Part shown: positions 34,276 to 57,964 of the stretch, piece by piece
Layout of the letters: every line of letters starts with the position of its first letter
Numbering within the stretch: position 1 is the stretch's first letter
NCBI GenBank assembly: GCA_050290185.1
Contig: JBNKHE010000008.1
Location: 128,001 to 192,000 of the forward strand
Direction: 5' to 3'
From: Pontiella sp.
GTDB taxonomy: Bacteria; Verrucomicrobiota; Kiritimatiellia; Kiritimatiellales; Pontiellaceae
DNA: 64,000 nucleotides
Program-made: the position numbers and the translations under genes
Notes under the pieces: generated by a model
What the model was told of the DNA's origin: nothing
What the model saw: the letters and a program-made list of their open reading frames with translations, nothing else
Databases searched by the model: none

Positions 34276-34317
34276 AAAGCGCCGTTGCGGTAGGCATGAC
34301 CGTAGCGGCGTTTTTTT
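34276..34317 (+). terminator. Intrinsic terminator
   Basis: GCGCCGTTGCGGT-AGGCATG-ACCGTAGCGGCGT followed by a T-run. Confidence 0.7.
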
Positions 34318-34334
34318 CTTTTCCGGCAAAAAAG

Positions 34335-34600
34335 CAAATTGGCATCCACCGAGGCATCCTGAAGCAGGACGTCGTATTGGTAGCCATATCTCCAAAATCA
34401 AGATCGGGTGTGAGGGTGCCGGGGGCGGCATACCATGCGGATTCGCCATCAAGGGCGATTTGGACACAGGTGTAACCGCCACTGTCTACCTTTTCCACCA
34501 CGGTTCCAACGGATCCGGGCATCGGTTCCGCCCATGCCGTTCCAGGGAAAAGCAGCAGGGACGCAAAAAGAGACGGGATGATTCGTTTCGTTGCAGACAT
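34335..34600 (-). pseudogene. Degenerate paralog of the OB-fold periplasmic protein at 43916-44416
   Basis: GTVVEKVDSGGYTCVQIAL..WYAAP matches GTVVSTEDSGSYTYVQLAI..WYAVP. It then jumps to GTLTPDLDFG and continues YGYQYDVLLQDASV only after a 2-nt (GA) frameshift. Confidence 0.7.
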
Positions 34601-34680
34601 GGCGGTTTCCTTTTTCCTTCAGGGATTAAAAGTCCTACAGCATGCAGGTCCTGAAAAGCTTGAAGTCAAGGCCGGTTTCG

Positions 34681-38828: not shown

Positions 38829-38913
38829 GAAGCCACGCTTGCTTCTCCGAAGCCTACTTGTCGTTGGATTTCTTGTGCTTCTTGCGGCCGACCTGGCTTT
38901 CCTCGGGGGAGAG
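38829..38913. repeat. Direct repeat copy 2 (3' end of the intact cytochrome c/b gene)
   Basis: Matches 34681-34765; minus strand encodes LSPEESQVGRKKHKKSNDK*. Confidence 0.9.
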
Positions 38914-40758
38914 CCTTTCTCGGTCGGCGGGGCTTTCGCGGCCGGTGAAAGCGGTCCACTTGACGGGATATTCCTCTGGATCGAACATCACGAAGTAGAA
39001 GTGCCAGATCACAATGGCGGCGCAGGCGAGAATGGCTTCGTAGTAGTGGATGGCCGTGCAGACATCGTAGAACCATTTCGGGAAGTGGGCGAGGGTCCAC
39101 TCCTCGTAGGTCATGAGCGTGCCGGTAAGCACCATGACGATCGAACCCCAGACGAGCGCCCAGTATTCGGCCTTTTCGATGTAGCTGTAGTGTTCGAAGC
39201 GGGCGCGTTCCTTGCGCAGACCGAGGTAGAAACCGAACATCTGGAAGGCATGAACCACGTCCGACCAGCGCGGGGCAAGCTGTTTGATCTGCCAGCGACC
39301 GCGTTTGGTAAAGATGATGTAGCCGATGTGGTAGATGCTCAGGGCGATGAAGATGATGGCCATCAATTTGTGTCCATATCCGCGCCAATCGGTCTGGCCA
39401 ACGAAGGGGCTGGCCCACCAGGCATCCGGATTCACCAGCGCGAAGCCGGTGTAGCCGAGCACAATGAAGGTGATGGCAAGAATGGCATGCTGGATACGCT
39501 CGCTGATGGTCATGCGGTGCGGTGCACCCTCTTCTTCGAGTTTATGAAGGTGCTCACGAATTTTTCTGAATAGATCAAATCCGTTATGCACCAGCATGCC
39601 GCCCAGTACGACGATGAACAACCAAACGTAAATAGTGCGGACGATGCCGGTGGCCTTGTGCTCGACTCCGGGCCGAGTGCCGGAATGAATCTGGCCGCGG
39701 GCCACCTGGTCCGTCACGCCGGCATGGCAGACACTGCAGGTTTTCTTCAGGTTGTTGGGGTTGATAGAGGAACGTGGGTCGCTGGAGGGTAGGATGTCGT
39801 GCTTTCCGTGACAGGAGGCGCAGTTGGCCGCCGTGAGGGAGCCGAGTCGCATGGAGAGACCGTGGTAGCTTTCCATGTAGGTTTCGACGGCAAATTCAGG
39901 CAATCGGTATTTGGTGACGATGCGTTCGGCTGCATGGCACTCTGCGCAGGTGGCCGATATGTGTGCGGCCGAGACTTTGGAGTCATCGGAGTCGGTCGAT
40001 GAAATGGTATGTTCACCATGGCAGTCGGTACAGGTGGGCGCATCATGGACGCCTTCGCTCACGGCTATTCCATGCACGCTCCGCTGGTAGGTGTTGGCGA
40101 TGTTTTCGTGGCATTTCCCGCAGGTGGTGGGAATGTTTTGCCAGTACAGTTTCGATTTTGAGTCGGTGGATTTCAGCAGGTTGTGCGAGCCGTGGCAGTC
40201 GGTACAAACGGGGGCGGTCGATCCATCATGCCGTCCCATGGCCAATCCATGGACGCTGTTTTCGTAACTGGAGATCGGTTCGAGCTGGTGAAGATTGAAT
40301 TTCTTCATCTGCTCCACGTCGCCATGGCAACGGGCGCAGGTCGCTGCGATATTCTTCCGGTTGATGGTCGAGGCTTCATTTCTGGAGGAGATGATATAGT
40401 GCGAGTCGCCGTGGCAGTCCTTGCAGGTGGCCGCCTGATCGCGCCCTTTTCGCAAGGCGATGCCGTGGGAGCTTTGCAGGTAGATTTCCGATTCGATATC
40501 GTGGCATTCCGCACAGTCGACTTTTTTCAGCGGAGTGTCGTGCATGGGGTCTTCAATGTCGTCGTGGCAACTGGTGCATTCGTTGTCGGCATGGACGGAT
40601 TGCCGGAAGCGTTCGCTGTCCACAGGACGGTCGGCATCGTCTTCTCCGTGGCATTCAAGGCAGTCGGCGTTGCTGATTTGTGCGCAGGTTGTGGAAACCG
40701 TTGAAAACAGTCCGATGGCGCAAAGCAGAAGAAGCAACGATGGGTAAGCTTTTTTCAT
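38854..40758 (-). CDS. CbcL-like multiheme cytochrome c (11 CxxCH) fused to FdnI/HydC-type cytochrome b
   Basis: Signal peptide and 11 CxxCH. TM domain has His ligands: 'ERIQHAILA', 'GHKLMA', 'YSYIEKAEYWALVWG', 'IHYYEAILA...IWHFY'. Confidence 0.9.
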   Translation of the reverse strand: MKKAYPSLLLLLCAIGLFSTVSTTCAQISNADCLECHGEDDADRPVDSERFRQSVHADNECTSCHDDIEDPMHDTPLKKVDCAECHDIESEIYLQSSHGIALRKGRDQAATCKDCHGDSHYIISSRNEASTINRKNIAATCARCHGDVEQMKKFNLHQLEPISSYENSVHGLAMGRHDGSTAPVCTDCHGSHNLLKSTDSKSKLYWQNIPTTCGKCHENIANTYQRSVHGIAVSEGVHDAPTCTDCHGEHTISSTDSDDSKVSAAHISATCAECHAAERIVTKYRLPEFAVETYMESYHGLSMRLGSLTAANCASCHGKHDILPSSDPRSSINPNNLKKTCSVCHAGVTDQVARGQIHSGTRPGVEHKATGIVRTIYVWLFIVVLGGMLVHNGFDLFRKIREHLHKLEEEGAPHRMTISERIQHAILAITFIVLGYTGFALVNPDAWWASPFVGQTDWRGYGHKLMAIIFIALSIYHIGYIIFTKRGRWQIKQLAPRWSDVVHAFQMFGFYLGLRKERARFEHYSYIEKAEYWALVWGSIVMVLTGTLMTYEEWTLAHFPKWFYDVCTAIHYYEAILACAAIVIWHFYFVMFDPEEYPVKWTAFTGRESPADRERLSPEESQVGRKKHKKSNDK

Positions 40759-40854
40759 AGTGTAAAGGTAGTTATAGGGCGACGCCAACGCAAATATAAT
40801 CCGTACACATTGTGTGTGTATTTATCCCTGCGCGCCGAGCGCTAGTCTTCAAAC

Positions 40855-40912: not shown

Positions 40913-43786
40913 TTATTTATAAACGAAAATCATCGAATAGATAATGCCGATGATCAGCGCGATTCCGATGGCCAGCGCGCACCAGGCAAAGAACGTGATG
41001 ACCTTGACCTTGTGCTCCGGCATTGGATCGGCGAGACGCTCCTCCAGTTTTCCGGTGCGCACCATCTCTTCATATTCACCCGGCTTTTCATGCTTGAGAT
41101 CTTCAAGAGGCATGCGGCCGGTGAAGATGACCTTGTCCATCGGGAACTTCTCTGGACGGAAGTGCGTGTTAAAGAAGTGGATGCTGAAGATGAACCCGGC
41201 GGCCAGCAATGCTTCATCGCTGTGGATAATAGTTGCCACATTGATGGCCCAGCCCGGCAGGAAGTGGGAGAAGAATACCGGGAACCAGAGGATGAGCCCG
41301 GACATACCGATGACAGCAATCCCCCAGAATACGGCGAGATAGTCAAATTTTTCCCAGTAGGTCCAGCGGCCGTATTGCGGGCGCGGGCCCTTGTGGAAAT
41401 ACCATTTGATGGTTTCGGCGAATTCCCGGAAGTCGCGCAGGGTTGGGAGCATGGTGTTCGGACCCAATAGCAATTCCTTCCAGGTTCCAAATTCGGTTTT
41501 CTTGCGGCGCGCCAGATCGTACAGATGAACAACGAAGATGACGACCATGACGAGCGCCGCGGAACGATGCAGTACACCTGTCACCGTGAACCCGCCGAGC
41601 GCCTTGGAAACGGCGACCGCCCAGGGCGTATAGGCAAATTTCAGCGTCATGCCGGTGGTGGCGAGCGTGAGGAAGCAGCAGATCATGGTGGCGTGCAGGA
41701 TGCGGTAGAGGAAGGTGAACCGTACGTAGAGCTTCTCGCCCGGCGCGGGTTTGTGGGCCAGACGTTCGCGGCGGGCATGCAGCGAGCGCGGCAACCACAG
41801 CAGGGTATGGATTCCGAAGAAGGTAAAGGTGCCCACGAGCAGAGCGGTCATGGCCCAGAAACTCCAGAAGATCCAGGGATACTTTTGCGGATCGTGGTGG
41901 GTGGCGTGGGTCAGATAGCCGGCAAACTTGCGGGTGGCTCCCGGATGGCATTGCTGGCAGGTCTGTACGATGTTCTCATGGCTTAGCGAGGAGTGTGGAT
42001 CGCTGATCGGCAGGATAGAGTGTGCGCCGTGGCAGTTATAGCACTTGGCGGCTTTGTCGAATCCAAGCTTGTTGGCCTTGCCGTGGAAGGTGTCAAAATA
42101 GGTTTTCGTGATTTCCTCGTGGCATTTGCCGCAACGGTCCATGATCACGAACTTGAAGTCGTCCATATCGGTGCGCTGGATGGTGTGGGCCGTATGGCAG
42201 TCGCTACAGACCGGAAGGCCGGCTTTATCCTCGGCAGATGCCTTGTCAATGGAGTGGATGCTGGCCGAGTATTGCTCATAAATGCCCTTGTGGCACTTGG
42301 CGCAGGTGGCCGCGATGTTTCCGCGGTTTACGCTCGAGTCGGGATTGGATGCAGGGAGTTCGCCATGGGCCGTATGGCAGCTCGTGCACATGGCCGTCAC
42401 AGACAAGCCGCTTTCAAGCAGGCCCTTGCCGTGGATGCTTTGCACGTAGTTGTTGACGATTTCGTGTTCTTTCCCTTGGTAGCGCACGGCAGCCTGTCCA
42501 TCTTCGCGATGGCACTGGGCGCACAGGGAGGGCACGCTGGTCGGGTACGTGGGCGAGGTGATATCGGTCTTGCCCAGTACGCCATGGGTTCCATGGCAAT
42601 CCGTACAGACGGGCGCGTTTGGATTGTTTTCGGCATGGAGCTGACCGTGTGTGCTCTTCTGATACTGTTCCACCTGATCGTTGTGGCAAACCGCGCAGTC
42701 AACCTTTTCGGTGACCGTGTCGCAGGCGCGCTCGTGGCTGGGTGTGACGCCGGTATGGCACTGGGCGCAGGCCACTTCGTTGTGCATGGAATGATCCAGT
42801 TGATCGCCGGCCACATACATCGACCGTCCGTCTGCTGCTTTCAGGTCCTCATGACTGTGGCACATGAGGCAGTCGGCATTGGCGACTCCCTGTTCGTAGA
42901 AGACCTTGCGGGCCTTGTGCGGCTGGTGACATTCGACGCAGACCGGAACGGTTTCCGGTTGTTCTTCCCACCGCTGGCCGTTGATGATCTTGCGGTGCAC
43001 CCTTTCGATTTCCGAGTGGCATTGCAGGCAGGTGGATACGACGTTGTTCTGAGCAATCGATGATTTTGGGTCGGTATGGGGGAGAATGTCGTGTGCCGTG
43101 TGGCAGGAAATGCAGGTGGCGCTGCCGCTCAGCCCTTTTTTGAACAGGCCTTCACCGTGGATGCTCAGGGAATAGTTTTCAAGGATGTGGTCTTCGGGAA
43201 TGTCCCGCTGCTCCATAACCTCCGTGCCTTCGCTATGGCAGGAACCGCAGAGAAAGGGGATCTTGAGCGGGGATACCGAGGATTTTCGATCGTCCACCGG
43301 CAGGATATTGTGCGATCCGTGGCAGTTTTGGCAGCGCGGGGCCAGTGGATCGCCCTTGGCCAGAGCCTGTCCATGGATACTGGCGACGAAGGATTTTTCC
43401 TGATCGTCATGGCAGCTCAGGCAGTTGACGCGCTCCAGCGGGGTGTCGTGCGGAAGCTCCACGCCATCGAGATCCGTATGGCAATCAATACAATCCAGCC
43501 CGCCGTGAACCGAGTCATCGAAGACCACTTCATCGACATAAACCGGAACTTCAACGCCGTTGCGATCCATCGTCAACGAGTCGTCTTCGTGGCAGTCGAG
43601 ACAGTCGCTGTTATCCGCGATGGCTCGTGGTGCAACGCTCATGGCAACTGTGCAACACAGCAATAGTGAAAAAGCCCGCCCTAAAATATTGAGTTTAGAA
43701 ATCACACCCGTCCCCCCGGTTCCTGTATCCGTATTTCCATGATTCATCATGCGCCCCGTTGCATTTGAAGCAAACCTCCCGTTCAT
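40913..43786 (-). CDS. Large CbcL-like multiheme cytochrome c (19 CxxCH) fused to cytochrome b (true start may be downstream of 43786)
   Basis: 19 CxxCH counted. TM cytochrome b domain: 'RILHATM', 'LHRSAA', 'GRWTYWEKFDYLAVFWG', 'IHSDEALLAAGFIFSIHFFNTHFRPEKFPMD'. Confidence 0.9.
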   Translation of the reverse strand: MNGRFASNATGRMMNHGNTDTGTGGTGVISKLNILGRAFSLLLCCTVAMSVAPRAIADNSDCLDCHEDDSLTMDRNGVEVPVYVDEVVFDDSVHGGLDCIDCHTDLDGVELPHDTPLERVNCLSCHDDQEKSFVASIHGQALAKGDPLAPRCQNCHGSHNILPVDDRKSSVSPLKIPFLCGSCHSEGTEVMEQRDIPEDHILENYSLSIHGEGLFKKGLSGSATCISCHTAHDILPHTDPKSSIAQNNVVSTCLQCHSEIERVHRKIINGQRWEEQPETVPVCVECHQPHKARKVFYEQGVANADCLMCHSHEDLKAADGRSMYVAGDQLDHSMHNEVACAQCHTGVTPSHERACDTVTEKVDCAVCHNDQVEQYQKSTHGQLHAENNPNAPVCTDCHGTHGVLGKTDITSPTYPTSVPSLCAQCHREDGQAAVRYQGKEHEIVNNYVQSIHGKGLLESGLSVTAMCTSCHTAHGELPASNPDSSVNRGNIAATCAKCHKGIYEQYSASIHSIDKASAEDKAGLPVCSDCHTAHTIQRTDMDDFKFVIMDRCGKCHEEITKTYFDTFHGKANKLGFDKAAKCYNCHGAHSILPISDPHSSLSHENIVQTCQQCHPGATRKFAGYLTHATHHDPQKYPWIFWSFWAMTALLVGTFTFFGIHTLLWLPRSLHARRERLAHKPAPGEKLYVRFTFLYRILHATMICCFLTLATTGMTLKFAYTPWAVAVSKALGGFTVTGVLHRSAALVMVVIFVVHLYDLARRKKTEFGTWKELLLGPNTMLPTLRDFREFAETIKWYFHKGPRPQYGRWTYWEKFDYLAVFWGIAVIGMSGLILWFPVFFSHFLPGWAINVATIIHSDEALLAAGFIFSIHFFNTHFRPEKFPMDKVIFTGRMPLEDLKHEKPGEYEEMVRTGKLEERLADPMPEHKVKVITFFAWCALAIGIALIIGIIYSMIFVYK

Positions 43787-44435: not shown

Positions 44436-45926
44436 CTACATCACGGGAACGCCGGTGTGGCATTCATCGCAACTGGTTTCTTTCCATTCCTCGTCGATAT
44501 CCTCGGGATGTTTGAATTCCAGCCCGCCGGTATTGATGCTTGAAACATCGCGACCCGGTCCCTGTGCAATGATGGTGTGGCATAGATTGCAGTCGCGGGA
44601 GATGACCTGTCCCTGTTCGCTTTCGTGGTCGCCATTATGGCAGCGGAAGCAGCCGGGCGTGATCATATGGCCGATGTGGTCGGGGTATACCTGCCAGCTG
44701 ACATTCATTTCCGGGAACATGTTTTGCCGGTAGATCTGCTGTATGGCATGAATGGCGTTGAGCACATTTTCGCCGCCCTCGGGGTAGGCTTCGGTTAAGG
44801 TTTCGTCGATCGTCTGGAGGGCTTCTCCCTCGGTTTCGTATTTCCCCGTGAGCACTTCGATTCCGTTGGCCTTGATTTCCGGTATGGAAGGATCAAGTCG
44901 GCCATTTGCCAGCGCATCGTTGAGCGCCCGTTCCGGCGAATGATACTGGTGGGTGGGGCGGTTGTGGCAGTCGATGCAGTCCATCGTGCGTATTTCCGCA
45001 CTGGCGATCTGCTCGGGTGTCAGTTGCTTGCTCTTTTCCGAGGTCTGGAAAATCGTTTCATTGCCCTGGTCGTCAGTCATTCGCACCCATGGGATTTCGA
45101 GCCGTTTTTCATCGGCGGCAATATACTCGATTTTATTGTTTCCGGAAACGTGCCAGTGAATGCCCTGGGGTCGGCCGTGGGCCGGATCGCCGCCGCCCAC
45201 CTTGAGTAGCATCTGGATAGTCCAGGGGCTGTTGTCCTCATCGGCACGGAAGTAGGTGCGCTTCAGTTCCTGGGCACCAAAGAACTTTTCAGGCCAGTGG
45301 CACTCGTAGCAGGTTTCCTTGGCCGGGCGCAGGTTATGCACCGGGGTTTCGATCGGCCGGTGGTACTTATCGAAAATGACGGAGTAGACCTGATATAACC
45401 CGTTGATCTTCGATTTTACGAAAAAGTCGGCGCCCGGGCCAATATGGCATTTCACGCAACCCGCATTCGCATGCGGTGAGTTTTGGTAGGCGGTGTATTC
45501 GGGCTTCATGACCTCGTGGCAGGTTTTTCCGCAGAACTCGACCGATTCCGTAAAATGATAGGCCCGGTAGCCGCCTACCACACTGAGGCAGATAAACATC
45601 AAGGTAACGATGACGATGATGGCAAAGTTGCGGAATTGATAGCCATCATTAAGGTTGATGATCGGCATTCGGGTCGGCTCTCCGTGTCCTTTTAATCTGC
45701 GCTTACGCTCAAAAATAACGCCAATAAGAATCAGGAGCAGGCCCGTGATGAGGAATATGGGAACCACCATATAGGTAAAGATGCCCGTGTAGGGGTTCTC
45801 GAAATGGGTTTGCATGTCGATCACGATCAGCGTGGTGCCGGTAATAAATCCGAATGCGGCCATCACAATACCAACAAGGCTGAGAATGTTGCGGACCAGG
45901 CTGTGTTTTGATGGGTTTCGTTTCAT
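44436..45926 (-). CDS. ImcH-like NapC/NirT family inner-membrane multiheme cytochrome (7 heme motifs)
   Basis: Three N-terminal TM helices; 'TESVEFCGKTCHEVMKPEY..Y.NSPHA'; one CxxxCH and six CxxCH. Confidence 0.88.
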   Translation of the reverse strand: MKRNPSKHSLVRNILSLVGIVMAAFGFITGTTLIVIDMQTHFENPYTGIFTYMVVPIFLITGLLLILIGVIFERKRRLKGHGEPTRMPIINLNDGYQFRNFAIIVIVTLMFICLSVVGGYRAYHFTESVEFCGKTCHEVMKPEYTAYQNSPHANAGCVKCHIGPGADFFVKSKINGLYQVYSVIFDKYHRPIETPVHNLRPAKETCYECHWPEKFFGAQELKRTYFRADEDNSPWTIQMLLKVGGGDPAHGRPQGIHWHVSGNNKIEYIAADEKRLEIPWVRMTDDQGNETIFQTSEKSKQLTPEQIASAEIRTMDCIDCHNRPTHQYHSPERALNDALANGRLDPSIPEIKANGIEVLTGKYETEGEALQTIDETLTEAYPEGGENVLNAIHAIQQIYRQNMFPEMNVSWQVYPDHIGHMITPGCFRCHNGDHESEQGQVISRDCNLCHTIIAQGPGRDVSSINTGGLEFKHPEDIDEEWKETSCDECHTGVPVM

Positions 45927-46134: not shown

Positions 46135-46572
46135 ATGATGTCGTTATCGCAAACTACAGGGCATGCAATTCGGGCCCTGGCCTGTCTGGCGGGGTGTGCA
46201 AATCCACCGGCAAACATCAAGGATGTAGCCTCGTGCGCCGGGGTTCCCTCGGCCTATCTGGCTAAAATCGTAAAGAAACTTAATGATGCCGGCATTGTTG
46301 CCTCCAAGCGTGGCAGTACGGGCGGGATATGGCTGGCACGGCCCGCCAAGCTGATCAGCCTGTACGAAGTGTCCTGTGCAGTGGAGGGGCCTGATTTTCT
46401 GAGTCCTTGCCTGTTCGGGCCGGAACCCTGTGGCAGTGAGCGCGAATGCCCCAATCATGAATTCTGGGTGAAAAACCGCGAAATGATCCGTAGGGAGCTG
46501 GAGCGTACCAAGCTTTCCGATGTGCTCGAATTCTATCGGGGCCGGGGCAGGCATCAAATGCCTGCGGAGTGA
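46135..46572 (+). CDS. Rrf2 family transcriptional regulator, probable Fe-S sensor
   Basis: 'YLAKIVKKL..AGIV.SKRG..GG..LARP'; C-x6-C-x5-C-x2-H motif (CLFGPEPCGSERECPNH). Confidence 0.92.
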   Translation: MMSLSQTTGHAIRALACLAGCANPPANIKDVASCAGVPSAYLAKIVKKLNDAGIVASKRGSTGGIWLARPAKLISLYEVSCAVEGPDFLSPCLFGPEPCGSERECPNHEFWVKNREMIRRELERTKLSDVLEFYRGRGRHQMPAE

Positions 46573-46811: not shown

Positions 46812-47390
46812 ATGAAAAAGTGGATAGTTTTCAGTAGTATCGGTCTTTCAATGATGTTTGTTTCATTCGCTTCGGGGCAGTCCGAAGACGTGTCCAAGCT
46901 GGTGGGTACCAAGAAATGCGCGATGTGCCACAAAAAGGATGATGGCGGAAACCAATATGGAAAGTGGATGGAAGCAAGCCACTCCAAGGCCTATGAAGTG
47001 CTCGCTTCCGACGAGGCCAAGGCGGTTGGCACCAAGCTGGGAATCGACAATCCGCAAACCAGCGGCGCGTGTCTGAAGTGCCATTCCACGGCCTATTACT
47101 TTACCGAAGAGCTCAAAAGCGACGCCGTTGCGGTCGAAGATGGCGTTTCCTGCGAGTCGTGCCATGGCCCCGGCGCCGACTATAAGAAAAAATCGATCAT
47201 GCAAAACCACGACGATGCGGTGGCCAACGGAATGGTTGCCGACGCGAAGACGCGTTGTGTAGTCTGTCACAACGATACGGGCCCGACCTGGAATCCCGAG
47301 CGCTACACCTTGCCTGATGGCACAACCACCGGATTCGATCTGACTCAAGCCTACGAAAAGATCAAACACGAAAAGCCTGCGGCAGAATAG
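46812..47390 (+). CDS. Periplasmic tetraheme cytochrome c (c554/c552-like)
   Basis: Signal peptide; CAMCH, CLKCH, CESCHGPG, CVVCH; 'QYGKW...HSKAY' motif. Confidence 0.88.
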   Translation: MKKWIVFSSIGLSMMFVSFASGQSEDVSKLVGTKKCAMCHKKDDGGNQYGKWMEASHSKAYEVLASDEAKAVGTKLGIDNPQTSGACLKCHSTAYYFTEELKSDAVAVEDGVSCESCHGPGADYKKKSIMQNHDDAVANGMVADAKTRCVVCHNDTGPTWNPERYTLPDGTTTGFDLTQAYEKIKHEKPAAE

Positions 47391-47462: not shown

Positions 47463-48557
47463 ATGAAAGATCCTTTTGAAAAGCTAAAGAAGGCCTTCTT
47501 TGTCGCCGGCGTGAACTACCGTACGGCACCGGTCGAGGTTCGTGAGCGGATGGCGGTGGCGCATCCGGATCGTGAAGAGGTCAGTCGCTTGCTTCAGCTC
47601 AAGGCAGGGCTTTCCGAGGTAGTGGTGCTCTGGACCTGCAACCGGGTCGAAATCTATGGCGTGACTGCCCGGGGTGGCGAGGTTGATGTCGCTGCCATTT
47701 TCGAATGTATGGGAAGGGAAGCCCCAAGCCTGTCTTCTCATGTCTATTGTCTCTACGGGCAGGATGCGCTGACCCACCTGTTCAAGGTTTCCTGTGGTCT
47801 GGATTCCATGGTTTTGGGTGAAACCCAGATTACCGGACAGGTTCGCGATGCCTACGAAGCCGCCCGCAAGGTGACGCTGGCCGGAAAAATCCTCAACAGC
47901 GTATTCCAGAAAGCATTGCAGACGGCTAAGGCGGTCCGTACGCAGACGTCGCTCGGGCAGGGGGCCCGATCCGTTGGCGGTGCCGCAGTTGCCCATGCGC
48001 GCGAGGTTCTTGGTTCGGATGGTCTGGGTCGGCACAAGGTTTTGATGATCGGTGCGGGTGAAATGGCTGCCTGCTGCCTGCTCCACCTTCAGAAAAAAGG
48101 GGAATGCGAAGTGGTTGTGGCCAACCGTTCGCAGGATCGTGCACGGCGTTTGGCAGAAGAGTTCGAGGGAACGGCGATCCCTTTCCGTGAACGTTATGAG
48201 GCCATGGTAGATGCTGATGTGGTGATCAGTTCAACCGGCAGTACCTCAACGGTGATTCATCGTGCCGAATTGGAGCAGGTCATGCAGCTCCGCTCGCAGC
48301 GACCGCTGATGATTATCGATATTGCGGTGCCTCGCGACGTGGATCCCGATGTTGTGGAAGTGGGCGGGGTTCATCTTCACGATATCGATGCCTTGGAGTC
48401 CACGGTGCGGCAGACGCTGGGCCGTTGGGAAAAAGATCTGGAATTCTGCGAAGAAATCATGGCGCAGGAGATTGAAAATCTAAAGGAGCAGTTCCGCAGC
48501 CGGGCTGCCGCCCGCAAGCGGGCCCAGCAACAACAACGGTTACAGCAGGCGGGCTAG
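47463..48557 (+). CDS. hemA: Glutamyl-tRNA reductase (second copy, short C-terminus)
   Basis: 'GVNYRTAPVEVRE', 'TCNRVEIY', 'GLDSMVLGETQITGQVR', 'IGAGEMA', 'IDIAVPRDVD'. Confidence 0.93.
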   Translation: MKDPFEKLKKAFFVAGVNYRTAPVEVRERMAVAHPDREEVSRLLQLKAGLSEVVVLWTCNRVEIYGVTARGGEVDVAAIFECMGREAPSLSSHVYCLYGQDALTHLFKVSCGLDSMVLGETQITGQVRDAYEAARKVTLAGKILNSVFQKALQTAKAVRTQTSLGQGARSVGGAAVAHAREVLGSDGLGRHKVLMIGAGEMAACCLLHLQKKGECEVVVANRSQDRARRLAEEFEGTAIPFRERYEAMVDADVVISSTGSTSTVIHRAELEQVMQLRSQRPLMIIDIAVPRDVDPDVVEVGGVHLHDIDALESTVRQTLGRWEKDLEFCEEIMAQEIENLKEQFRSRAAARKRAQQQQRLQQAG

Positions 48558-48621: not shown

Positions 48622-50841
48622 ATGAAAAGTAAACGGGTACAACTCATGGCAATCGCTGCAATGGCGATAGCCATGCTTGGGATTCACTGCGTTCAGGCGC
48701 AGGAGTTACGGATCGACACGCGGCCTCTTACGCCGGCCGAAATTAGCAATTATGGATTGCCTGGCACGACGCAAATCGCCAACGGCACCCATGTGGTGGG
48801 TCTCGGGCAACCAGTCTACCTCGACTTGCTGGCCGACGCTGGTACGGTAGTTACTCAGGTGGTCTGGACACTGAATGACGTGGTAGATGTAGACGGATAT
48901 TCCGTCACCTCGTCCGCGACACTTACCAACAGCCCGCTCCCGATGTCCATGCCGACCTACGATTCCGTTGACCGGGTGGCTTTCGACCTTATCGACCGAT
49001 CCATGATTGTTCCGGATGTCAAGGGTACCTATCAGATTTCGGTCCAGGCCTTTACCTCGAATGGTGTACTGAATGCCGATATCGAAGTGGTAGGCTCCGT
49101 GTTCATCGGTCAGGATTCAGCCGCCTGTTCGCTTTGTCATGCCAGCAAGCAGGAGCCATTCATGACCACGCTCCATTCCGTTGCCCTGAAGGACAATATC
49201 AACGATCCGAACGGCCATTTTCAGGCATTCTGCATCAAGTGCCACGCACTGGGATATGACACGACACCGGGTGCTGTCAATATGGGCTTTGACGATGTCG
49301 CCGACGATCTGGGATGGACCTTCCCTGCCGTATTGGGAACCAACAACTGGGATGATCTACCGGATGCGCTGAAACTGAAATCCAATGTACAGTGCGAAAA
49401 CTGCCATGGTCCGGCCCAGGAACATCTGCGTTCCGGTGGCGATCCGAGCAAGATTGGCATCAGCATGAGTGCCGGTACCTGCGGGCAATGCCACGATGCG
49501 CCTTCGCATCATACCAAGAACTTTGAATGGGGAACTTCCGTTCACGGCCAGACTACAGTCGACCGTTCGGGTAGTTGCCGCAACTGCCACACGTCCGCCG
49601 GCTTTGTGGATGCGAACGATCCCGGCATGAATGAATACGGCGAAGAAGTCGCAGTTACAGCCACCTTCAAGGAAGGAATCACTTGCGCCGCATGCCATGA
49701 TCCGCATGCGAAGGGCGGACAGATTCATCAGTTGCGTGACCTGCAAAGCGTCGAGCTCGAAAATGGTAGTGTCATCACCAATGGCGGAGCCGGCATCGTG
49801 TGCATGAGTTGTCATAAATCGCGTCGCGAGGCCGAGACCTATGTCTATGGCAATGCCAGCAAGCACTTTGGGCCGCACCATGGACCGCAGGGCGATATGA
49901 TGGCTGGCGAAAATGCCGTTGAATATGGACAGGATATGCCCTCGTCCAAGCACTTGACCGTGGTTGAAGAGTCTTGTGCCGAGTGCCACATGCAGGAAAT
50001 TCCTGCCGGTCTTCCGGCCTATGCTGCCGGCAAAGTGGGTGGGCACTCTTTCGCACTGGCCTACGAAGACGGTACCAATGCTCCGATCTATCTGGTTGAC
50101 GCCTGCTCCAGTTGCCACGGCGAAATCGAAGACTTCAATTTCGGTGGCGAGGACTACGACCTCGATGGCGTGGTTGAAGGTGTACAGGAAGAAATCGAAG
50201 GTCTGTTGCATGATCTGGCGATGCTGCTGCCTCCGGTAGGTGATCCGGAAATCGGCCTGCATACCAGCACCGATGGCTACGACACGCTGCCGATCAAACG
50301 CGGGGTGTACAACTATCTGTTCGTTGAAGAAGACGGCAGCCATGGGGTGCATAACCCGAAGTATGCGGCCGCTATCCTGCGGGCCTCCATTGAAGACCTC
50401 AAGGGCGGTATCGATATCGACCATGACGGTCTGGTCGATGCATGGGAAATTGCCAACTTTGGTGATTTGACCAGCCAGTCCGGCATGGGCGACTACGATG
50501 GCGATGGCCTGACCAACGATCAGGAAGAAAATCTCGGAACCGATCCTCTGCTCGTTGACAGCGATGGTGACGGGATCTCCGACCTGGCCGAAGTTCAGGG
50601 CGGAAGCAACCCGCTGGATATCGACAGCGTTCCGACCAGCGATATGGTCATCCTGCCGGCGGCCGAAGTCGGCTACCTTCCGCAGGGTACGGGAACCGTG
50701 GTTCGTATCCAGTCTACCGATGCTCTCGGTGGTGGGTGGCAGGATCTCGGTCCGGCCCAGACCAATACCGGCAGTATGGTCTATGGTCTCGATTCCCTGC
50801 GGGGGACGACCAACCGCTTCTATCGCGCAATCGAGGAATAA
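48622..50841 (+). CDS. Secreted/surface nonaheme c-type cytochrome with N-terminal Ig-like domain, DxDxDG repeats and C-terminal FYR domain
   Basis: Signal peptide; 9 CxxCH and no CxxCK; 'EDGSHGVHNPKYA'; DIDHDG/DYDGDG/DSDGDG repeats; ends NRFYRAIEE. Confidence 0.88.
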   Translation: MKSKRVQLMAIAAMAIAMLGIHCVQAQELRIDTRPLTPAEISNYGLPGTTQIANGTHVVGLGQPVYLDLLADAGTVVTQVVWTLNDVVDVDGYSVTSSATLTNSPLPMSMPTYDSVDRVAFDLIDRSMIVPDVKGTYQISVQAFTSNGVLNADIEVVGSVFIGQDSAACSLCHASKQEPFMTTLHSVALKDNINDPNGHFQAFCIKCHALGYDTTPGAVNMGFDDVADDLGWTFPAVLGTNNWDDLPDALKLKSNVQCENCHGPAQEHLRSGGDPSKIGISMSAGTCGQCHDAPSHHTKNFEWGTSVHGQTTVDRSGSCRNCHTSAGFVDANDPGMNEYGEEVAVTATFKEGITCAACHDPHAKGGQIHQLRDLQSVELENGSVITNGGAGIVCMSCHKSRREAETYVYGNASKHFGPHHGPQGDMMAGENAVEYGQDMPSSKHLTVVEESCAECHMQEIPAGLPAYAAGKVGGHSFALAYEDGTNAPIYLVDACSSCHGEIEDFNFGGEDYDLDGVVEGVQEEIEGLLHDLAMLLPPVGDPEIGLHTSTDGYDTLPIKRGVYNYLFVEEDGSHGVHNPKYAAAILRASIEDLKGGIDIDHDGLVDAWEIANFGDLTSQSGMGDYDGDGLTNDQEENLGTDPLLVDSDGDGISDLAEVQGGSNPLDIDSVPTSDMVILPAAEVGYLPQGTGTVVRIQSTDALGGGWQDLGPAQTNTGSMVYGLDSLRGTTNRFYRAIEE

Positions 50842-50848
50842 TGATAAC

Positions 50849-50882
50849 GGGATCGGCCCATCAATGGGCCGATCCCTCTTTC
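50849..50882 (+). terminator. Intra-operon hairpin / weak terminator
   Basis: GGGATCGGCCCA-TCAA-TGGGCCGATCCC followed by TCTTT. Confidence 0.6.
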
Positions 50883-50898
50883 CCTTGGAAGGGTGTAA

Positions 50899-52269
50899 AT
50901 GAAGGATCTTTCCAGAATCAGCCTTAACGTGACCTTGCTCGGCGCAGGGCTTTTTTTATTTGGGGCTTCGGCCTTTGGCAAAGAGGCGGCGTCCCCGGCC
51001 TATTCGGGTTCGTTACGCGCCACATACGACTATCGCGGGATGGGCGATTACGAAGACCATGATGCCTATAGCTACTGGTATTTTCGTGGACGCGATCTTG
51101 GCGATGAGCTTGTGGATATCTATACCTCCGGCCGGTTTCACTCCGACCTGGATGGCACCACCTCTACCGCATACGATCCCTTCGGAAGTATAAGCGATGG
51201 CTCACAGGGTGATTTTCGGTTGCTTCAGTTTTATGTGGATATTCACAACCGCGAGCAGAGCATGGCCATGCGCTACGGTCGTCAGTATGTAGACATCGCG
51301 GATTATATTCAACTGGATGGCGCGCAGGTCATGCTGTTTGAAAAGCAGGCGATTGGCGGCCGGGTATTTATCGGTCAGCCGGCCAGTGACTATTCCGCGA
51401 CAGACGGGGACGTCTTTTTGGGAGCATCTCTAGTCGGAAGACCATGGAGTGGCAATCAAAGCCGGGCCACCTATGCACGATATCGCGATGACAGCAAAGC
51501 TGTTGCGGATGATCATGTTTTTCTGAATATGAAACAAACCCTGGGGGACGAACTCAGGACGCACGCTTACCTTTCCGTCATGAATAATGATGTTCGCATG
51601 GGCGGGGCCGATCTGTTTTATGTCTCTATGTCGGATTATGTATTTGATGCGGTTTTGGGGGTTAAGCGCTGGGGGGATTACACTGCCGATACGCGGGCCT
51701 ATTCTCCTTTGTCGGAAGCCTTGAACGGTCTGGAGCCCTACACTATGGGATACGGCCGCTTTACCGCGGAACTGTTGCCCTGGCTATATCTTTCTCCGGG
51801 GGCCACGCTCCGTGAACCCGACGACGAAAACTTTACCAACCGCCGTTTTGAGCGGTACGACCTCAGTTTCATTCTGGAGCCGACTGACGGGCTCAGTTCC
51901 ACTGTTGCCCTGGAATACTGGGATGTGGACGACGACAGTGAATTTTTCGGTGTGAGTGGAGATATCCGCTACCGCTACCGGAAGCTCTGGGAGCTGTCGC
52001 TGGGGGCGGCCTACGTGGATTATACCTATCTGCAGTTAAGCGATCAGTCGGTGTTTAACAACGACGAAGCGATCCTTCCCGAACTTCCAATCAATCCGCA
52101 GGATGGTTCTCGCGTAGAGGCCTCCCCCAACGCGTTTACGTATTATCTGCGTGGACGGTGGAGCATCACCGAGAAAGCGGCGTTGCGGCTTTCGGGCGAA
52201 CTTGAAGACGATAGCGACGAGGAAGATCTGAGCTATCGGATTCGCACATCATTTGAGGTACGGCTGTGA
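50899..52269 (+). CDS. Putative outer-membrane beta-barrel (porin of a porin-cytochrome conduit)
   Basis: Signal peptide, no Cys, many amphipathic Tyr/Gly-rich strands ('MRYGRQYV..LDGAQV'), C-terminal strand SYRIRTSFEVRL; flanked by two multiheme cytochromes. Confidence 0.75.
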   Translation: MKDLSRISLNVTLLGAGLFLFGASAFGKEAASPAYSGSLRATYDYRGMGDYEDHDAYSYWYFRGRDLGDELVDIYTSGRFHSDLDGTTSTAYDPFGSISDGSQGDFRLLQFYVDIHNREQSMAMRYGRQYVDIADYIQLDGAQVMLFEKQAIGGRVFIGQPASDYSATDGDVFLGASLVGRPWSGNQSRATYARYRDDSKAVADDHVFLNMKQTLGDELRTHAYLSVMNNDVRMGGADLFYVSMSDYVFDAVLGVKRWGDYTADTRAYSPLSEALNGLEPYTMGYGRFTAELLPWLYLSPGATLREPDDENFTNRRFERYDLSFILEPTDGLSSTVALEYWDVDDDSEFFGVSGDIRYRYRKLWELSLGAAYVDYTYLQLSDQSVFNNDEAILPELPINPQDGSRVEASPNAFTYYLRGRWSITEKAALRLSGELEDDSDEEDLSYRIRTSFEVRL

Positions 52270-52271
52270 AA

Positions 52272-53267
52272 ATGAATCGCATAATCCAGTTCACGACGAT
52301 GGCTGTATTCCTTGTCCTGCTGTCCGGATGCAAGGAAGAAGAGAAATACCAGCTGCGCTTCAGTCACTATCTTCATGTAACCGAAAATGAAATGGGTTGC
52401 GATGAATGCCACGGTGAACCGGGACAACCCTCGTTCAGCGCCATTTCGCACGAAACCTGCCTCGACTGCCATGACGAGCCGGAGGCGGAAGAGATTGCCG
52501 CTGAAACCTGCGGAATGTGCCATCAGGAAAAACAGCTGGCTGTTTTTGCGCTGCCGGAAACCGAAGAAGCGGATGCCGCGTACGAGGTAGACAAAGTACC
52601 GGCCCGGAATATTTTCGTACACACTGAAGCCCTTGCAGGTCAATGCACGGACTGCCATGAATACTTGCTGGACGAAAATCTGGACGCTGTGCCTATGCTG
52701 GAGCGTAGCGATGTGCTGGCTATACGCCAGAAAGCCCATGCGTCGGGGCAGGAGTGTATCACTTGCCATGTAGATATGGATCCAGGGATTCCGCCGGCCA
52801 GTCATGATGTGGCATGGACCAAACGGCATGGCCGGTTTTCCATGCAGGATGATGCCTCGTGCAGCGTCTGCCATACACAGGACAGTTGCATGGATTGCCA
52901 TAATGTCATGCAGCCGGTTTCGCATAACACCATGTTCCGGACGCGCACGCACGGTACGCTTGCCGCGTGGAACCGCGACAGCTGCCAGGTATGCCATGAA
53001 GAAGACTCGTGCACGTCATGTCATGCCATGACGCGGCCAAGATCGCACAATGCCCGCTGGGGTGCTGCGGGTTTCAAACCGACACACTGTATTGGCTGCC
53101 ACGATACATCAACGCCGGGCGATGGTTGCGCAACCTGTCATGAGAATGGCAACGATGTCATGTTGCATGAACGCTACTGGGGAGGTGCTCCTATCAACCA
53201 TAACCAACCGGGCATTGAAAACTGCTACATCTGCCACTGGACGCAAGCCCCGCAAGGGACTCTCTAG
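52272..53267 (+). CDS. Dodecaheme c-type cytochrome lipoprotein (ExtA-like)
   Basis: Lipobox LLSGC; 'LRFSHYLH'; 12 CxxCH; repeats of P.SH...W...HG......CxxCH....CxxCH. Confidence 0.9.
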   Translation: MNRIIQFTTMAVFLVLLSGCKEEEKYQLRFSHYLHVTENEMGCDECHGEPGQPSFSAISHETCLDCHDEPEAEEIAAETCGMCHQEKQLAVFALPETEEADAAYEVDKVPARNIFVHTEALAGQCTDCHEYLLDENLDAVPMLERSDVLAIRQKAHASGQECITCHVDMDPGIPPASHDVAWTKRHGRFSMQDDASCSVCHTQDSCMDCHNVMQPVSHNTMFRTRTHGTLAAWNRDSCQVCHEEDSCTSCHAMTRPRSHNARWGAAGFKPTHCIGCHDTSTPGDGCATCHENGNDVMLHERYWGGAPINHNQPGIENCYICHWTQAPQGTL

Positions 53268-53278
53268 TCTAGGGAGAA

Positions 53279-53950
53279 CTACAGTTTGCGAACGGTGCAT
53301 CCGTCAGGCGCGATGTCGATTTCAAAGTCGATGATGCCTTCCGAACCGCGGATCGTGGCCTTGACGGGCTCGGTAACCGTAAGTGCGAATGCCAGCGTAT
53401 TCAGTTCGGATGGCGAGCATTGAATAATGCCAAGACTGCCGGTCGCGTTGACGATACCTTCTGCGCTGGCCTCATTCGCTGCAGATGCGGGATGCAGAGA
53501 TACGATTTTAGATGAAGAGTTTCCCGGTACACGCACAACGAGTGTGATGTCTTCGGGCAGGTTGAGGCCTTCACCCACATTGAATTCCAAATGAACGGCC
53601 AGTCCTGCAGAGGTTTGCTGTACTGTAGCTTCCTGCAAGAACAGCGTTTCAACCTCTTCTTTGACGGGGTTGACGGGGAGGGAGGTGCGGTTTGTGCGCA
53701 TCGTTGAGAGCCGTTCCCGGGTCTCTTTCGATGAATCTCCGCTGTTTAAATCATTAATTTCCGCTTTGGCAGTGGTAAGTTCCTGCTGCAGTTTGCTGTT
53801 TTGAACGGTAAGCTGCTGCACGCGGTCAGTTGCTTCCGTATGATTGCGCCACAGCATCGCAATGGCGAGGAGCAGGATCACGGTGGGCGCCAGATAGAGT
53901 GCAACGATGAGAGGATTGCGGGGCCGGTTTGGAGAGGTTGATTTATTCAT
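53279..53950 (-). CDS. Hypothetical membrane-anchored coiled-coil protein
   Basis: One N-terminal TM helix, coiled coil, beta-rich C-terminus. Confidence 0.65.
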   Translation of the reverse strand: MNKSTSPNRPRNPLIVALYLAPTVILLLAIAMLWRNHTEATDRVQQLTVQNSKLQQELTTAKAEINDLNSGDSSKETRERLSTMRTNRTSLPVNPVKEEVETLFLQEATVQQTSAGLAVHLEFNVGEGLNLPEDITLVVRVPGNSSSKIVSLHPASAANEASAEGIVNATGSLGIIQCSPSELNTLAFALTVTEPVKATIRGSEGIIDFEIDIAPDGCTVRKL

Positions 53951-54725: not shown

Positions 54726-54794
54726 TCCCGGCGACGCTCGTTCGTCACGGAATCCGTGCGGAAACGGGGTTGTTTGCGGCTCGATTGCAACATT

Positions 54795-56216
54795 ATGAAA
54801 AAAATCATCGATTTCTTCCTGTCGCTTAAGCTGACGGTGGCATTGCTGGCCCTCAGTATGGTGCTGGTGCTCGCCGGAACGCTGGCCCAGATCGACAAGG
54901 ATATCTGGGCGGTCATGGAGCAGTATTTCCGCTGCTATATGGCTCAGATCGACCTGTTTGTCTTCTTCCCGCGTTCCTGGGACATTCCCCGCAATATATG
55001 GATTCCGTTCCCAGGCGGTTTTCTGATTGGCTTCCTGTTGACGGTCAACCTGCTGATGGTGCATTCCGCCAGTTTCAGGGTGGTGGCCAAGGGCAACCGT
55101 CGGCTCGCCGGGTTCTTGGTCCTGTTGCTGGGGATTCTGGTTGTGGTGGGCGTCATGTTCGGCTGGGGCACAACGGCGGTGGCGGCCACGGAAGACGATG
55201 CGTTTTGGCGCGTATTCCTGCGTCTTGGACGTGGAACATTGGCGGCCGTGGTCTTGTTCTGGGCCTGCCATTTGCTCTACTACAAACGCGCGGGCATGGT
55301 TTTGCTGCACGGTGGGATTCTGTTTCTGCTGATAGGCGAATTCATTACCGCCCAGTTTGCGGTGGAAGCCAACATGACCATCAAAGAGGGCGAAACGGTC
55401 AACTATATCGACCGCACCCAGCAACTTGAACTCTCCTTTACCGACACCTCGGATCCCCAGCATGACATAGTGACCGTGATCCCGCAGGAAAAACTAAAGG
55501 ACGACGCTCTGATCCAGCCCGACACCCTACCTTTCGATATCAAGATTAATCACTACATGCTCAACTCGAACAATCCGCAACCCCTGACCAACGTGTCCGA
55601 GCGGCAGCGCAACAGTTACCCGAAATACGAAGGCTACGGATCCCGTCTCTATGTAGCCGAACAGCGCGAGGTCAGCGGAACCATGAGCGCCCGCAATGCG
55701 CCGGCAGTCGATGTGGAATTGTTTGACCGGCAGTCCGGTGCATCGCTGGGCCGCTACATCCTGAGTCTGTGGTTCTACCCCAACTTCGTCAACCAGGCAT
55801 GGGATATGCCTACCCGGATCAAGGTTGATGGCAAGGAATATATCGTTTACTACCGTTTTGCGCGGGAATATCTGCGCTCCCCGAGCGGAAGTCCCTTTTC
55901 GATCACGCTGCTCGACTTTAATCATGAGAATTATGAAGGCACCCAGATGCCCAAGGATTTCTCCAGCCATATCCGGCTGGTCAATCCGGGGGATGATGTA
56001 GATCGAGAACTGCGTATCTGGATGAACAATCCCTTGCGCTATGCCCGCCGGACCTTCTATCAGTCCGGCTTTTTGCCTAATGACAGTGGAACCGTGCTGC
56101 AGGTGGTTCGCAACGATGTGTGGATGATTCCCTATCTCTCCTGCATGATCGTGTTCGTGGGCATGGTCGGACAGTTTTCCCAGTCGTTTAAACGCTATCT
56201 TCGGAGGGACGCCTGA
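54795..56216 (+). CDS. resB: Cytochrome c biogenesis protein ResB/CcsB (System II)
   Basis: 'SLKLTVALL...LVLAGTLAQ', 'GMVLLHGGIL', 'IWMNNPLRY..TFYQSGF'; coupled to ccsA (TGATG overlap). Confidence 0.85.
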   Translation: MKKIIDFFLSLKLTVALLALSMVLVLAGTLAQIDKDIWAVMEQYFRCYMAQIDLFVFFPRSWDIPRNIWIPFPGGFLIGFLLTVNLLMVHSASFRVVAKGNRRLAGFLVLLLGILVVVGVMFGWGTTAVAATEDDAFWRVFLRLGRGTLAAVVLFWACHLLYYKRAGMVLLHGGILFLLIGEFITAQFAVEANMTIKEGETVNYIDRTQQLELSFTDTSDPQHDIVTVIPQEKLKDDALIQPDTLPFDIKINHYMLNSNNPQPLTNVSERQRNSYPKYEGYGSRLYVAEQREVSGTMSARNAPAVDVELFDRQSGASLGRYILSLWFYPNFVNQAWDMPTRIKVDGKEYIVYYRFAREYLRSPSGSPFSITLLDFNHENYEGTQMPKDFSSHIRLVNPGDDVDRELRIWMNNPLRYARRTFYQSGFLPNDSGTVLQVVRNDVWMIPYLSCMIVFVGMVGQFSQSFKRYLRRDA

Positions 56217-57964
56217 TGCGCCGCACCATTACCAACATGATCGTTGTTCTGTTTGCGCTCTGGTTCTTTGCGGCCGGAGTACGGCCCGCAAAGGAAGGCG
56301 CGTCCGACTTCCAGCTCAGCGCCTTCGCGCATTTGCCGGTAAAATACGATGGCCGCATAAAACCGATCGACACTCTGGCGCGCAACCTGTTGACGATTCT
56401 TTCCGGCAAGCAGTCGTTGAGCACCGATGACGGCGAGCGGCTGAGTGCGGTGGAATGGTTTCTCGACACGGTGTCCGGGCGGGAAGAAGCGTTCGACTAC
56501 AAGGTCATCCGCATCGAAAACCTCGATGTGCTGTCCAGCCTTGGGCTGGAAGAGCGTCATGGGTTGCGCTACTCCTACCGCGAGCTGGCGCCGAGTCTCG
56601 GCAGGCTCAACATGGCCGCGCGGTCGGCCTATGCCAAGGACACCCGCGACCGCGACGTGTACGACCGGCAGATCGTCAAGCTGGCCAACAAGCTCTATAC
56701 CTTTGACAACGTGCTATCTTCGTTCGAGGATCCGTCGACCTTTCCCAAGGACCAGCTGATGGCCACTGCGCAGCGCTATATGCAGCTGGAGGGCTACTCG
56801 CTTCCGCTCGTGATTCCGCCGCACGACGCCACGAAACGCTGGCGACCGCTCATGAGTTCATTGCTGGCCGGGCCCATGACGACGCCCGATCCGCTGGCCG
56901 TCAAGTTCGCTGCCATGCTGCACGATTACCGGGATGGAAGTACCGCCGGATTCAATCATAATCTGATGGATTACGGCACGGCTGTGAGCCGTGCCAATCC
57001 GGAAGTCTTTAGGAAGCTTGGCTTCGAAGTGTTCTACAACCGGCTCGGCGCCTTTATGAAATCGGCCGAACTTTACCTGCTCGTCTTTGTCCTCAGTTGT
57101 ATCGGCTGGCTGTTCCGCAAGCAGGGCCTGCTGGATGCCGCCCGCACCCTGATGATCTTCGCCTTTATTCCGCACACGTTCGCCATCGTGGCCCGCGTTT
57201 TCCTCTCGGGCTATCCTCCGGTAACCAACCTCTACTCCTCCGCCATCTTCATCGGATGGGCGGCGGTAGCGGTCGGTATCCTGATGGAAACCGTCTTTCG
57301 CAAGAAGGCTGACGGTATCGGCAATCTGGTCGGCGGCATTGCCGGTTTCACCACCTTGCTTATTGCCCATTTTCTTGCAGGCGACGGCGACACCATGGAG
57401 CAGATGCGCGCTGTGCTTGATACCCGCTTCTGGCTGGCCACGCATGTGACCATAGTAACACTCGGTTATATGGCTACATTTGTCGCCGGTACCATCGGCA
57501 TGTTCTATGTCTTTGCCGGACTGTTCACCCGGCGGCTCGACACCGAGACCGAAGACGGCATGTACCGCATGCTTTACGGGACCGTCTGTTTCGCGCTGCT
57601 CCTCAGTTTTGTTGGAACAGTGCTCGGGGGCCTGTGGGCCGACGATTCATGGGGGCGGTTCTGGGGCTGGGATCCCAAAGAAAACGGAGCGCTACTGATC
57701 GTGCTCTGGAACGCCATCATGCTCCATGCCCGCTACGGAAAAATGGTCAAGCACCGCGGTTTTGCCATCATGTCCATATTCGGCAACATCGTCACGGCCT
57801 GGTCGTGGTTTGGGGTCAACCAGCTCAACGTCGGTCTGCATTCCTATGGCTTTACGGACTCGGCCGGCTTTTGGTTGATGGTTTTCATCCTTTCTCAGAT
57901 GGCCATTTGCATGGCATGCCTTATTCCGCCGCGGTTTTGGAGAAGCGGTGCCACCCAAGGCTAG
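56216..57964 (+). CDS. ccsA: Cytochrome c biogenesis protein CcsA/ResC (System II)
   Basis: 'GRIKPIDT', 'PPVTNLY', 'WLATHV', WWD domain 'GGLWADDSWGRFWGWDPKEN', 'GLHSYG'. Confidence 0.93.
   Translation: MRRTITNMIVVLFALWFFAAGVRPAKEGASDFQLSAFAHLPVKYDGRIKPIDTLARNLLTILSGKQSLSTDDGERLSAVEWFLDTVSGREEAFDYKVIRIENLDVLSSLGLEERHGLRYSYRELAPSLGRLNMAARSAYAKDTRDRDVYDRQIVKLANKLYTFDNVLSSFEDPSTFPKDQLMATAQRYMQLEGYSLPLVIPPHDATKRWRPLMSSLLAGPMTTPDPLAVKFAAMLHDYRDGSTAGFNHNLMDYGTAVSRANPEVFRKLGFEVFYNRLGAFMKSAELYLLVFVLSCIGWLFRKQGLLDAARTLMIFAFIPHTFAIVARVFLSGYPPVTNLYSSAIFIGWAAVAVGILMETVFRKKADGIGNLVGGIAGFTTLLIAHFLAGDGDTMEQMRAVLDTRFWLATHVTIVTLGYMATFVAGTIGMFYVFAGLFTRRLDTETEDGMYRMLYGTVCFALLLSFVGTVLGGLWADDSWGRFWGWDPKENGALLIVLWNAIMLHARYGKMVKHRGFAIMSIFGNIVTAWSWFGVNQLNVGLHSYGFTDSAGFWLMVFILSQMAICMACLIPPRFWRSGATQG

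Follow-up and report, generated by a model that had tools for sequence, protein, structure and literature searches.

A conserved porin-cytochrome gene trio in Pontiella sp., most likely an outward electron conduit with an OcwA-like nonaheme cytochrome

How might a diderm bacterium complete an electron conduit on its outer side when the cytochrome that would sit there carries no lipid anchor? The question is raised by three co-directional genes in a 64,000-nucleotide stretch of a Pontiella sp. genome (assembly GCA_050290185.1, contig JBNKHE010000008.1, positions 128,001 to 192,000; hereafter the window). They encode a secreted nonaheme cytochrome, a porin-like protein and a 12-heme lipoprotein.

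48622..50841, + strand: OcwA/OmhA-like nonaheme cytochrome (739 aa, nine CxxCH motifs, Sec-type signal, no lipobox), the likely outer terminal reductase
50899..52269, + strand: outer-membrane beta-barrel, or porin (456 aa, no Cys, 22 predicted strands, no plug)
52266..53267, + strand: 12-heme lipoprotein (333 aa, 12 CxxCH motifs, lipobox LSGC at residues 19-22)

The gene content and heme counts given in an earlier note on this DNA were correct, and its statement that the last two genes abut was confirmed: the start of the lipoprotein gene overlaps the porin stop by four bases (the open reading frame, ORF, begins with GTG; an alternative ATG lies at 52272). The locus is real and conserved and is most likely an outward electron conduit. 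We favor the reading, with a probability of about 0.6, that the trio is a conduit of the porin-cytochrome (Pcc) kind in which an OcwA-type terminal reductase is exported and its C-terminal tail keeps it in place. Judged from sequence and models, this tail may display the nonaheme cytochrome, which would lie outside the cell, and the three proteins would bind one another.

The AlphaFold2 model of the porin (mean pLDDT 82.1, pTM 0.71) showed 22 long strands from residue 34; since the strands begin directly after the signal region, the protein has no plug domain. All of the structural neighbors listed for the model were outer-membrane barrels. TonB-dependent receptors have 22-stranded barrels with a plug inside, and the model covered only the barrel part of FyuA (Z 18.7, rmsd 5.9, 364 residues aligned) and BtuB (Z 16.7). 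It aligned to MtrB (6R2Q) with a Z of 15.6 and an rmsd of 7.7 over 354 residues, and MtrB was absent among the Foldseek matches listed. A barrel fold of sufficient width, which had been set beforehand as a test of the conduit idea, was thus predicted, and an empty lumen of this size would need a filler. A strand count on the barrel alignment gave a weak signal (15 amphipathic stretches against a shuffled mean of 9.4 and maximum of 16). Neither the protein nor its 66-member alignment matched a Pfam or NCBIfam family, a PDB sequence search returned no match that would give the barrel a family, and the curated NCBIfam models for MtrA, MtrB and MtrC were below cut-off or absent for the trio. The absence of Cys, which the earlier note had mentioned, applies to the window protein but to only 16 of the 66 homologues. 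The family is wide (492 clusters at E up to 0.001); five of 10 distant clusters looked up were named, and these came from Hinthialibacteria/Omnitrophota, Brocadiales, other Planctomycetota and Sumerlaeota.

The lipoprotein falls into two parts. Its N-terminal half resembles ActA, QrcA and GSU1996-type c7/c3 proteins, which are periplasmic, and in its C-terminal half short heme repeats follow one another. Complete relatives carry 12 to 26 heme motifs, and the lipobox pattern was present in 25 of 26 lipoprotein ORFs. Shi et al. described Pcc porins with 18-22 predicted strands and 338-344-aa, 12-14-heme periplasmic partners in Anaeromyxobacter and Kuenenia (PMC4245776). Our pair, with 22 strands, 333 aa and 12 hemes, falls within the usual description of a Pcc (an 18-22-strand porin with a 5-14-heme partner), and the match in strand number, size and heme count suggests that barrel and lipoprotein work like a Pcc pair. 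The likeness to OmbB-OmaB-OmcB and to two-gene Pcc clusters, in which a barrel likewise goes with a multiheme cytochrome of similar size and heme number, is one of description. The trio differs from them in that the outer partner would be OcwA-like without a lipobox, whereas the inner cytochrome has one.

The nonaheme cytochrome consists of four parts.

48706..49098, + strand: N-terminal beta-sandwich, Ig-like, spanning about residues 29-159 and matching no Pfam family
49099..50409, + strand: nine-heme core and C-terminal three-helix bundle (His-His pairs 296/297 and 419/420)
50410..50631, + strand: TSP3-type DxDxDG repeats, predicted to bind calcium
50647..50841, + strand: C-terminal FYR domain, a small uncatalogued beta domain that is terminal in 70 proteins of the genome

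The earlier note had called this protein a new type of outer nonaheme cytochrome, which was too strong: its heme core is of the known OcwA/OmhA-like type, and the novelty lies in the Ig-like, TSP3 and FYR packaging. The assignment follows from the solved-structure searches, Foldseek and the conserved His-His pairs. The nonaheme profile matched 6I5B (OcwA) at an E value of 6.5e-21 and 6QVM (OmhA) at 6.2e-14, ahead of NrfA and MccA, and the structure model (pLDDT 90.8, pTM 0.80; it contains no hemes) had 6I5B as its best Foldseek match (E 9.8e-8). OcwA of Thermincola potens has two open hemes with His-His pairs and reduces N-oxides (PMC6703420); OmhA is a cytochrome of Carboxydothermus ferrireducens (PMC7829351, PMC9250108). 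The OcwA pairs, 281/282 and 380/381 over hemes 2 and 5, are both matched in the window protein. H296/H297 (conserved at 0.68/0.98 among 116 sequences) align to the pair 281/282, and H419/H420 (1.0/0.80) align to the OmhA pair and follow heme 7, as in OcwA. Seven further His residues are invariant in the 116 sequences, enough for seven bis-His hemes; the conserved His444 lies roughly at the position of a Met that precedes heme 8 in OcwA, and heme 9 may therefore be bis-His here.

Nine CxxCH motifs without CxxCK were found in the window protein and in 114 of 116 homologues, and the helices at residues 521-535, 556-571 and 579-593 form the three-helix bundle. The nine motifs, the bundle and the His-His pairs at open hemes are shared with OcwA and OmhA; the diderm host, the porin partner and the added domains are not, and structural identity is 19%. 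OcwA had already been grouped with nonaheme cytochromes of Gram-negative bacteria by Gavrilov et al. (PMC7829351). A beta-sandwich at residues 29-159, Ig-like domains among the Foldseek neighbors and a TSP3_bac match (E 9.4e-13) bore out the Ig-like and calcium-binding-like regions proposed earlier; Foldseek was run on the whole model, and the Ig-like matches do not separate the FYR from the N-terminal domain. The lack of a lipid anchor also held, as a lipobox is absent from the window protein and a lipobox-like pattern occurs in only five of 116 nonaheme cytochromes. Two other identities were rejected: NrfA nitrite reductase, since the protein has nine hemes and not five and NrfA matches the C-terminal module only, and MtrC, since no MtrC family model passed its curated cut-off. 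PF22113 matched (E 1.3e-14) but also matches c554 and was taken as generic.

What, then, could hold such a protein at the surface? Of 11818 ORFs, 67 end in the FYR motif; at three control offsets the corresponding counts were 13, 13 and 17. A profile built from the FYR tails of this genome, with the nonaheme cytochrome excluded, found 70 terminal copies, and profiles built without the nonaheme protein recovered its tail at E values of 3e-6 to 4.9e-9, in support of a lineage-wide C-terminal domain. The further claim, that a secreted protease (23673-25835) carries the same domain, held by profile but not in a pairwise comparison (E 0.58). A crude signal-peptide test was passed by 58 of the 70 FYR-tailed proteins, three had a lipobox-like pattern and none had a C-terminal membrane helix. 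The set includes proteases, proteins of up to 2616 aa and three multiheme cytochromes with 4, 6 and 9 heme motifs.

Neither a family nor a solved structure for the FYR tail emerged from sequence searches of Pfam, NCBIfam and PDB, and the Atlas neighbors of the tail were unnamed Verrucomicrobiota clusters only. Type IX secretion uses a C-terminal domain (CTD) that is a small beta domain ending many signal-peptide proteins, with no membrane helix. The FYR tail is alike in all of these respects; unlike that CTD, it has no Pfam or NCBIfam match (none of 22 FYR tails matched a Por_Secre_tail-type CTD in these databases) and stands in a genome in which PorV and SprA were not found. Its terminal position and exchangeability make it an even chance, on our estimate, that the FYR tail sorts or retains the nonaheme cytochrome. 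A wider proposal is tentative and on balance doubtful: FYR would be the address label of an undescribed Verrucomicrobiota route of export or surface retention that carries folded multiheme cytochromes, OcwA-type nonaheme cytochromes would be plug-in terminal reductases that take the surface tag of the lineage and dock on unrelated porin wires, and the polysaccharide-degrading Kiritimatiellia would be extracellular respirers.

The two other FYR-tailed cytochromes of the genome lie at window 33446-34252 (+) and G000:C3:219210-221867 (-); they have four and six CxxCH motifs and no clear family, and no support was found for regarding them as OmcS- or OmcE-like. A nine-heme ORF with an FYR-similar ending was seen at L017:773-3103 (-) and a three-heme one at L010:735-1568. 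Small ORFs at G000:C8:29032-29409 and 32138-32524 consist of little more than a signal peptide, FYR and a proline-rich end. The genome has four secretins, and at window 10667-12205 (+) it encodes a barrel that matches TraF_2 (E 4.8e-18) and PorP_SprF (E 1.6e-11), its only PorP-like match; this barrel is a candidate handler of C-terminal tags.

The distribution of the genes was examined in a class sample of 251 Kiritimatiellia genomes and a phylum sample of 301 genomes; kin in these samples are not independent, the searches scored the top 3-6 candidates per genome so that weak or second copies may be missed, and alignment A3 leaves out L040. In the class sample the porin occurred in 19 genomes and the nonaheme cytochrome in 20, the same genomes but one; in the odd genome, which has no porin match, the nonaheme gene runs off the contig end. 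The phylum sample gave five genomes with the porin and seven with the nonaheme cytochrome, and the barrel profile reached only one genome outside the class. The nonaheme gene lay upstream of the porin in 24 of 28 loci (the other four porins start no more than 435 bases from a contig end) and the lipoprotein gene downstream in 25 of 28 (the other three are cut by contig ends), which establishes the trio as conserved. Homologues that carry names come from Pontiella and other Kiritimatiellales, and the locus is also present in Pontiellaceae bacterium B1224, which is labelled like a cultured strain. A second barrel and lipoprotein copy was noted 6 kb downstream of the first on one Kiritimatiellales contig (L005:7646-9810).

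The spacer after the nonaheme gene contains one more element.

50849..50876, + strand: hairpin with a 12-bp stem, 3' of the nonaheme stop, between the nonaheme and porin genes

A hairpin with z below -2 followed the nonaheme gene in 21 of 25 loci, against none of 25 coding controls. It suggests that the nonaheme message could be raised above that of the porin, with the cytochrome in excess over the barrel. The separation it marks also suits a different explanation, in which barrel and lipoprotein are a complete two-part conduit and the nonaheme cytochrome is exported but undocked, a released or matrix-bound redox enzyme (for N-oxide, sulfur or quinone reduction) that is loosely fed. Two-gene Pcc clusters with 12-14-heme cytochromes have been proposed to span the membrane alone (PMC4245776). 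The 26 hemes reached by relatives of the lipoprotein, the open hemes and N-oxide reduction of OcwA, and the pairing of the nonaheme cytochrome with unrelated barrels (below) point the same way. We nevertheless consider this explanation unlikely, because gains and losses of the porin and nonaheme genes coincide in the class sample, and in 17 of 19 genomes a single contig carries both.

Variants among the relatives bear on where the nonaheme cytochrome sits. It retains the FYR tail in 23 of 24 loci. In one genome (G044), where the same barrel occurs with a 23-heme lipoprotein, the tail consists of FG-GAP repeats instead; these match ORFs on nine other contigs and are terminal in two of the four inspected, the other two running off the fetched DNA. 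In two genomes outside the class (G297 and G401), with one and no FYR matches, respectively, the cytochrome has an aromatic tail. In G297 it is followed by a gene for a DmsE/MtrA-like lipoprotein (E 3.5e-42) and by a barrel-like ORF of 713 aa, to which the window barrel profile gave no match. In G401 it starts contig C104, and a distant barrel (E 1.5e-15) and a 12-heme gene end contig C85. The nonaheme core is thus, as far as these sequences indicate, constant while tail and porin pair vary. In a tree of 24 cores the three forms without FYR had long branches and an open fork, which gave no order of tail swaps. Two long eight-heme variants were also seen, L021:3023-5869 and L022:4571-7687 (ORFs of 948 and 1038 aa), the former without an FYR end.

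The best argument that the nonaheme cytochrome is the outer member comes from G297, where the inner slot is filled by an MtrA-type pair. The company of FYR in proteases and giant proteins and the FG-GAP swap in G044 also favor an outside location. The trio could still be oriented the other way, with the 12-heme lipoprotein outside, like ExtD or OmcB, and the Sec-only nonaheme cytochrome in the periplasm, its tail binding something there. The lipobox counts given above and the failed search for a tail export machine would fit this arrangement, and it stays a rival because the standard rule by which conduits are defined puts lipoproteins outside and because ExtD has 12 hemes (PMC6148476). We hold it to be rather unlikely: the closest solved relatives of the nonaheme cytochrome are cell-surface proteins, its globular core and helix bundle would, from the model, fit a barrel lumen poorly, and TSP3 and FG-GAP repeats, together with the G297 arrangement, are at odds with it.

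The following points weigh against the Pcc-like reading with an outer, tail-held nonaheme cytochrome. In established conduits the outer cytochrome is the lipoprotein and the inner one is Sec-only, and ExtD is itself a 12-heme outer lipoprotein (PMC6148476). The locus has an outer-membrane barrel without a plug and conserved adjoining multiheme genes, as a conduit should, but the usual outer lipoprotein is present only in the reverse orientation. A shared barrel fold by itself shows no function, and the Foldseek TM score to OcwA is 0.49 by target length. Seven FYR copies are internal, and G044 keeps 15 FYR matches though its nonaheme cytochrome lacks FYR. The aromatic tail was found on only one other ORF in G297 and none in G401; a general view of tails as genome-wide tags therefore failed, and a tail need not be one. 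PorV was not found in the genome (95.5% complete), where the positive control worked, nor was SprA, for which no positive control responded. The hairpin is not special either, since six of 19 gene ends in the window also have z below -2.

Genes flanking the trio bear on the direction of electron flow.

38854..40788, - strand: 11-heme cytochrome fused to cytochrome b
40913..43786, - strand: 19-heme cytochrome fused to cytochrome b
44436..45926, - strand: NapC/NirT-type inner-membrane cytochrome (six CxxCH and one CxxxCH)
46135..46572, + strand: Rrf2-family regulator
46812..47390, + strand: tetraheme c554-family cytochrome with a signal peptide, a likely periplasmic shuttle
47463..48557, + strand: glutamyl-tRNA reductase HemA (heme supply)
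54756..57964, + strand: ResB-like and CcsA-like cytochrome c maturation genes

Many loci, this one among them, have these genes around the trio. We take the NapC/NirT-type cytochrome to be ImcH-like and both cytochrome b/multiheme fusions to be CbcL-like. On paper, the families would give a route from quinol to the surface. The NapC-type and cytochrome b/multiheme proteins would oxidize quinol, and electrons would cross the periplasm on the c554 tetraheme cytochrome or on the lipoprotein's c7-like N-terminal part. The C-terminal half of the lipoprotein, with its narrow heme repeats, would fill the lumen of the predicted barrel. The nonaheme cytochrome would then pass electrons to extracellular acceptors (Fe(III), humic quinones or electrodes), and its two open heme sites, given the His-His pairs and the homology to OcwA, could also take N-oxides. 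The TSP3-plus-FYR tail, and not a lipid, would sort or retain the nonaheme cytochrome at the surface. The same architecture could serve inward flow, with Fe(II), reduced humics, sulfur or partner cells as the electron source. We judge this very unlikely, as the flanking genes resemble what we take to be the quinol-oxidizing set of Fe(III) reducers and OcwA and OmhA come from reducers. In favor of inward flow, conduits can in principle run either way, and inward examples are known (PMC6344600).

The conduit idea itself is known, and the more interesting question is what the FYR tail does. Porin-cytochrome clusters of Verrucomicrobia are in print (PMC5615132, PMC6344600, PMC13608581), and porin-cytochrome operons have been reported from Kiritimatiellaeota bins (10.1101/2020.04.01.018762). 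He et al. (2017) described a verrucomicrobial cluster of a porin with at least 20 strands, an eight-heme periplasmic partner and sometimes an extracellular multiheme cytochrome (PMC5615132); the G297 locus, with an octaheme-type MtrA-like protein, a large barrel and a nonaheme homologue, fits this layout, whereas the window lipoprotein has 12 hemes. ExtABCD of Geobacter sulfurreducens is alike in its 12-heme cytochrome, mid-sized barrel and further multiheme partners, and differs in its barrel, with 18 strands predicted for ExtB, and in that both ExtC and ExtD are lipoproteins; no OcwA-type member is described for it (PMC6148476). MtrCAB of Shewanella (6R2Q) shares the three-part logic and a barrel that aligns; the barrel here has 456 aa against 649 aa solved, and no curated Mtr family model passed. 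We found no description of the FYR tail, or of an OcwA-type partner in a porin-cytochrome cluster, in the open-access literature, which leaves subscription journals mostly uncovered. If our reading is true, it adds a way of completing an electron conduit on the outside without a lipid anchor, links a Gram-positive-type surface reductase fold to diderm porin wires, and suggests extracellular respiration in Kiritimatiellia. A heme-stainable cargo would also be a simple reporter for the role of the FYR tail, which about 70 proteins carry here.

A second porin-cytochrome cluster was noted at G000:C3:175777-181226 (20-heme, 24-heme and a 606-aa barrel-like ORF), unrelated to the window barrel by profile. 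A pair of four-heme and five-heme genes at G000:C4:305102-307034, the latter with five CxxCH motifs, resembles NrfH/NrfA, and nitrite may be reduced without the nonaheme cytochrome. In the window, a promoter scan was uninformative (11 sites where 6.3 were expected). Three genes that belong to no known family accompany the conduit in many loci (53279-53950, -; 54120-54725, +; 43916-44416, -), the last with a shorter paralogue at 34253-34618 (-). More heme/siroheme synthesis genes, including a second HemA-like fusion, lie at 29440-33064, 15 kb upstream of the conduit, and a subtilase with BspA leucine-rich repeats and no FYR tail (35101-38637, +) adjoins the cytochrome cluster.

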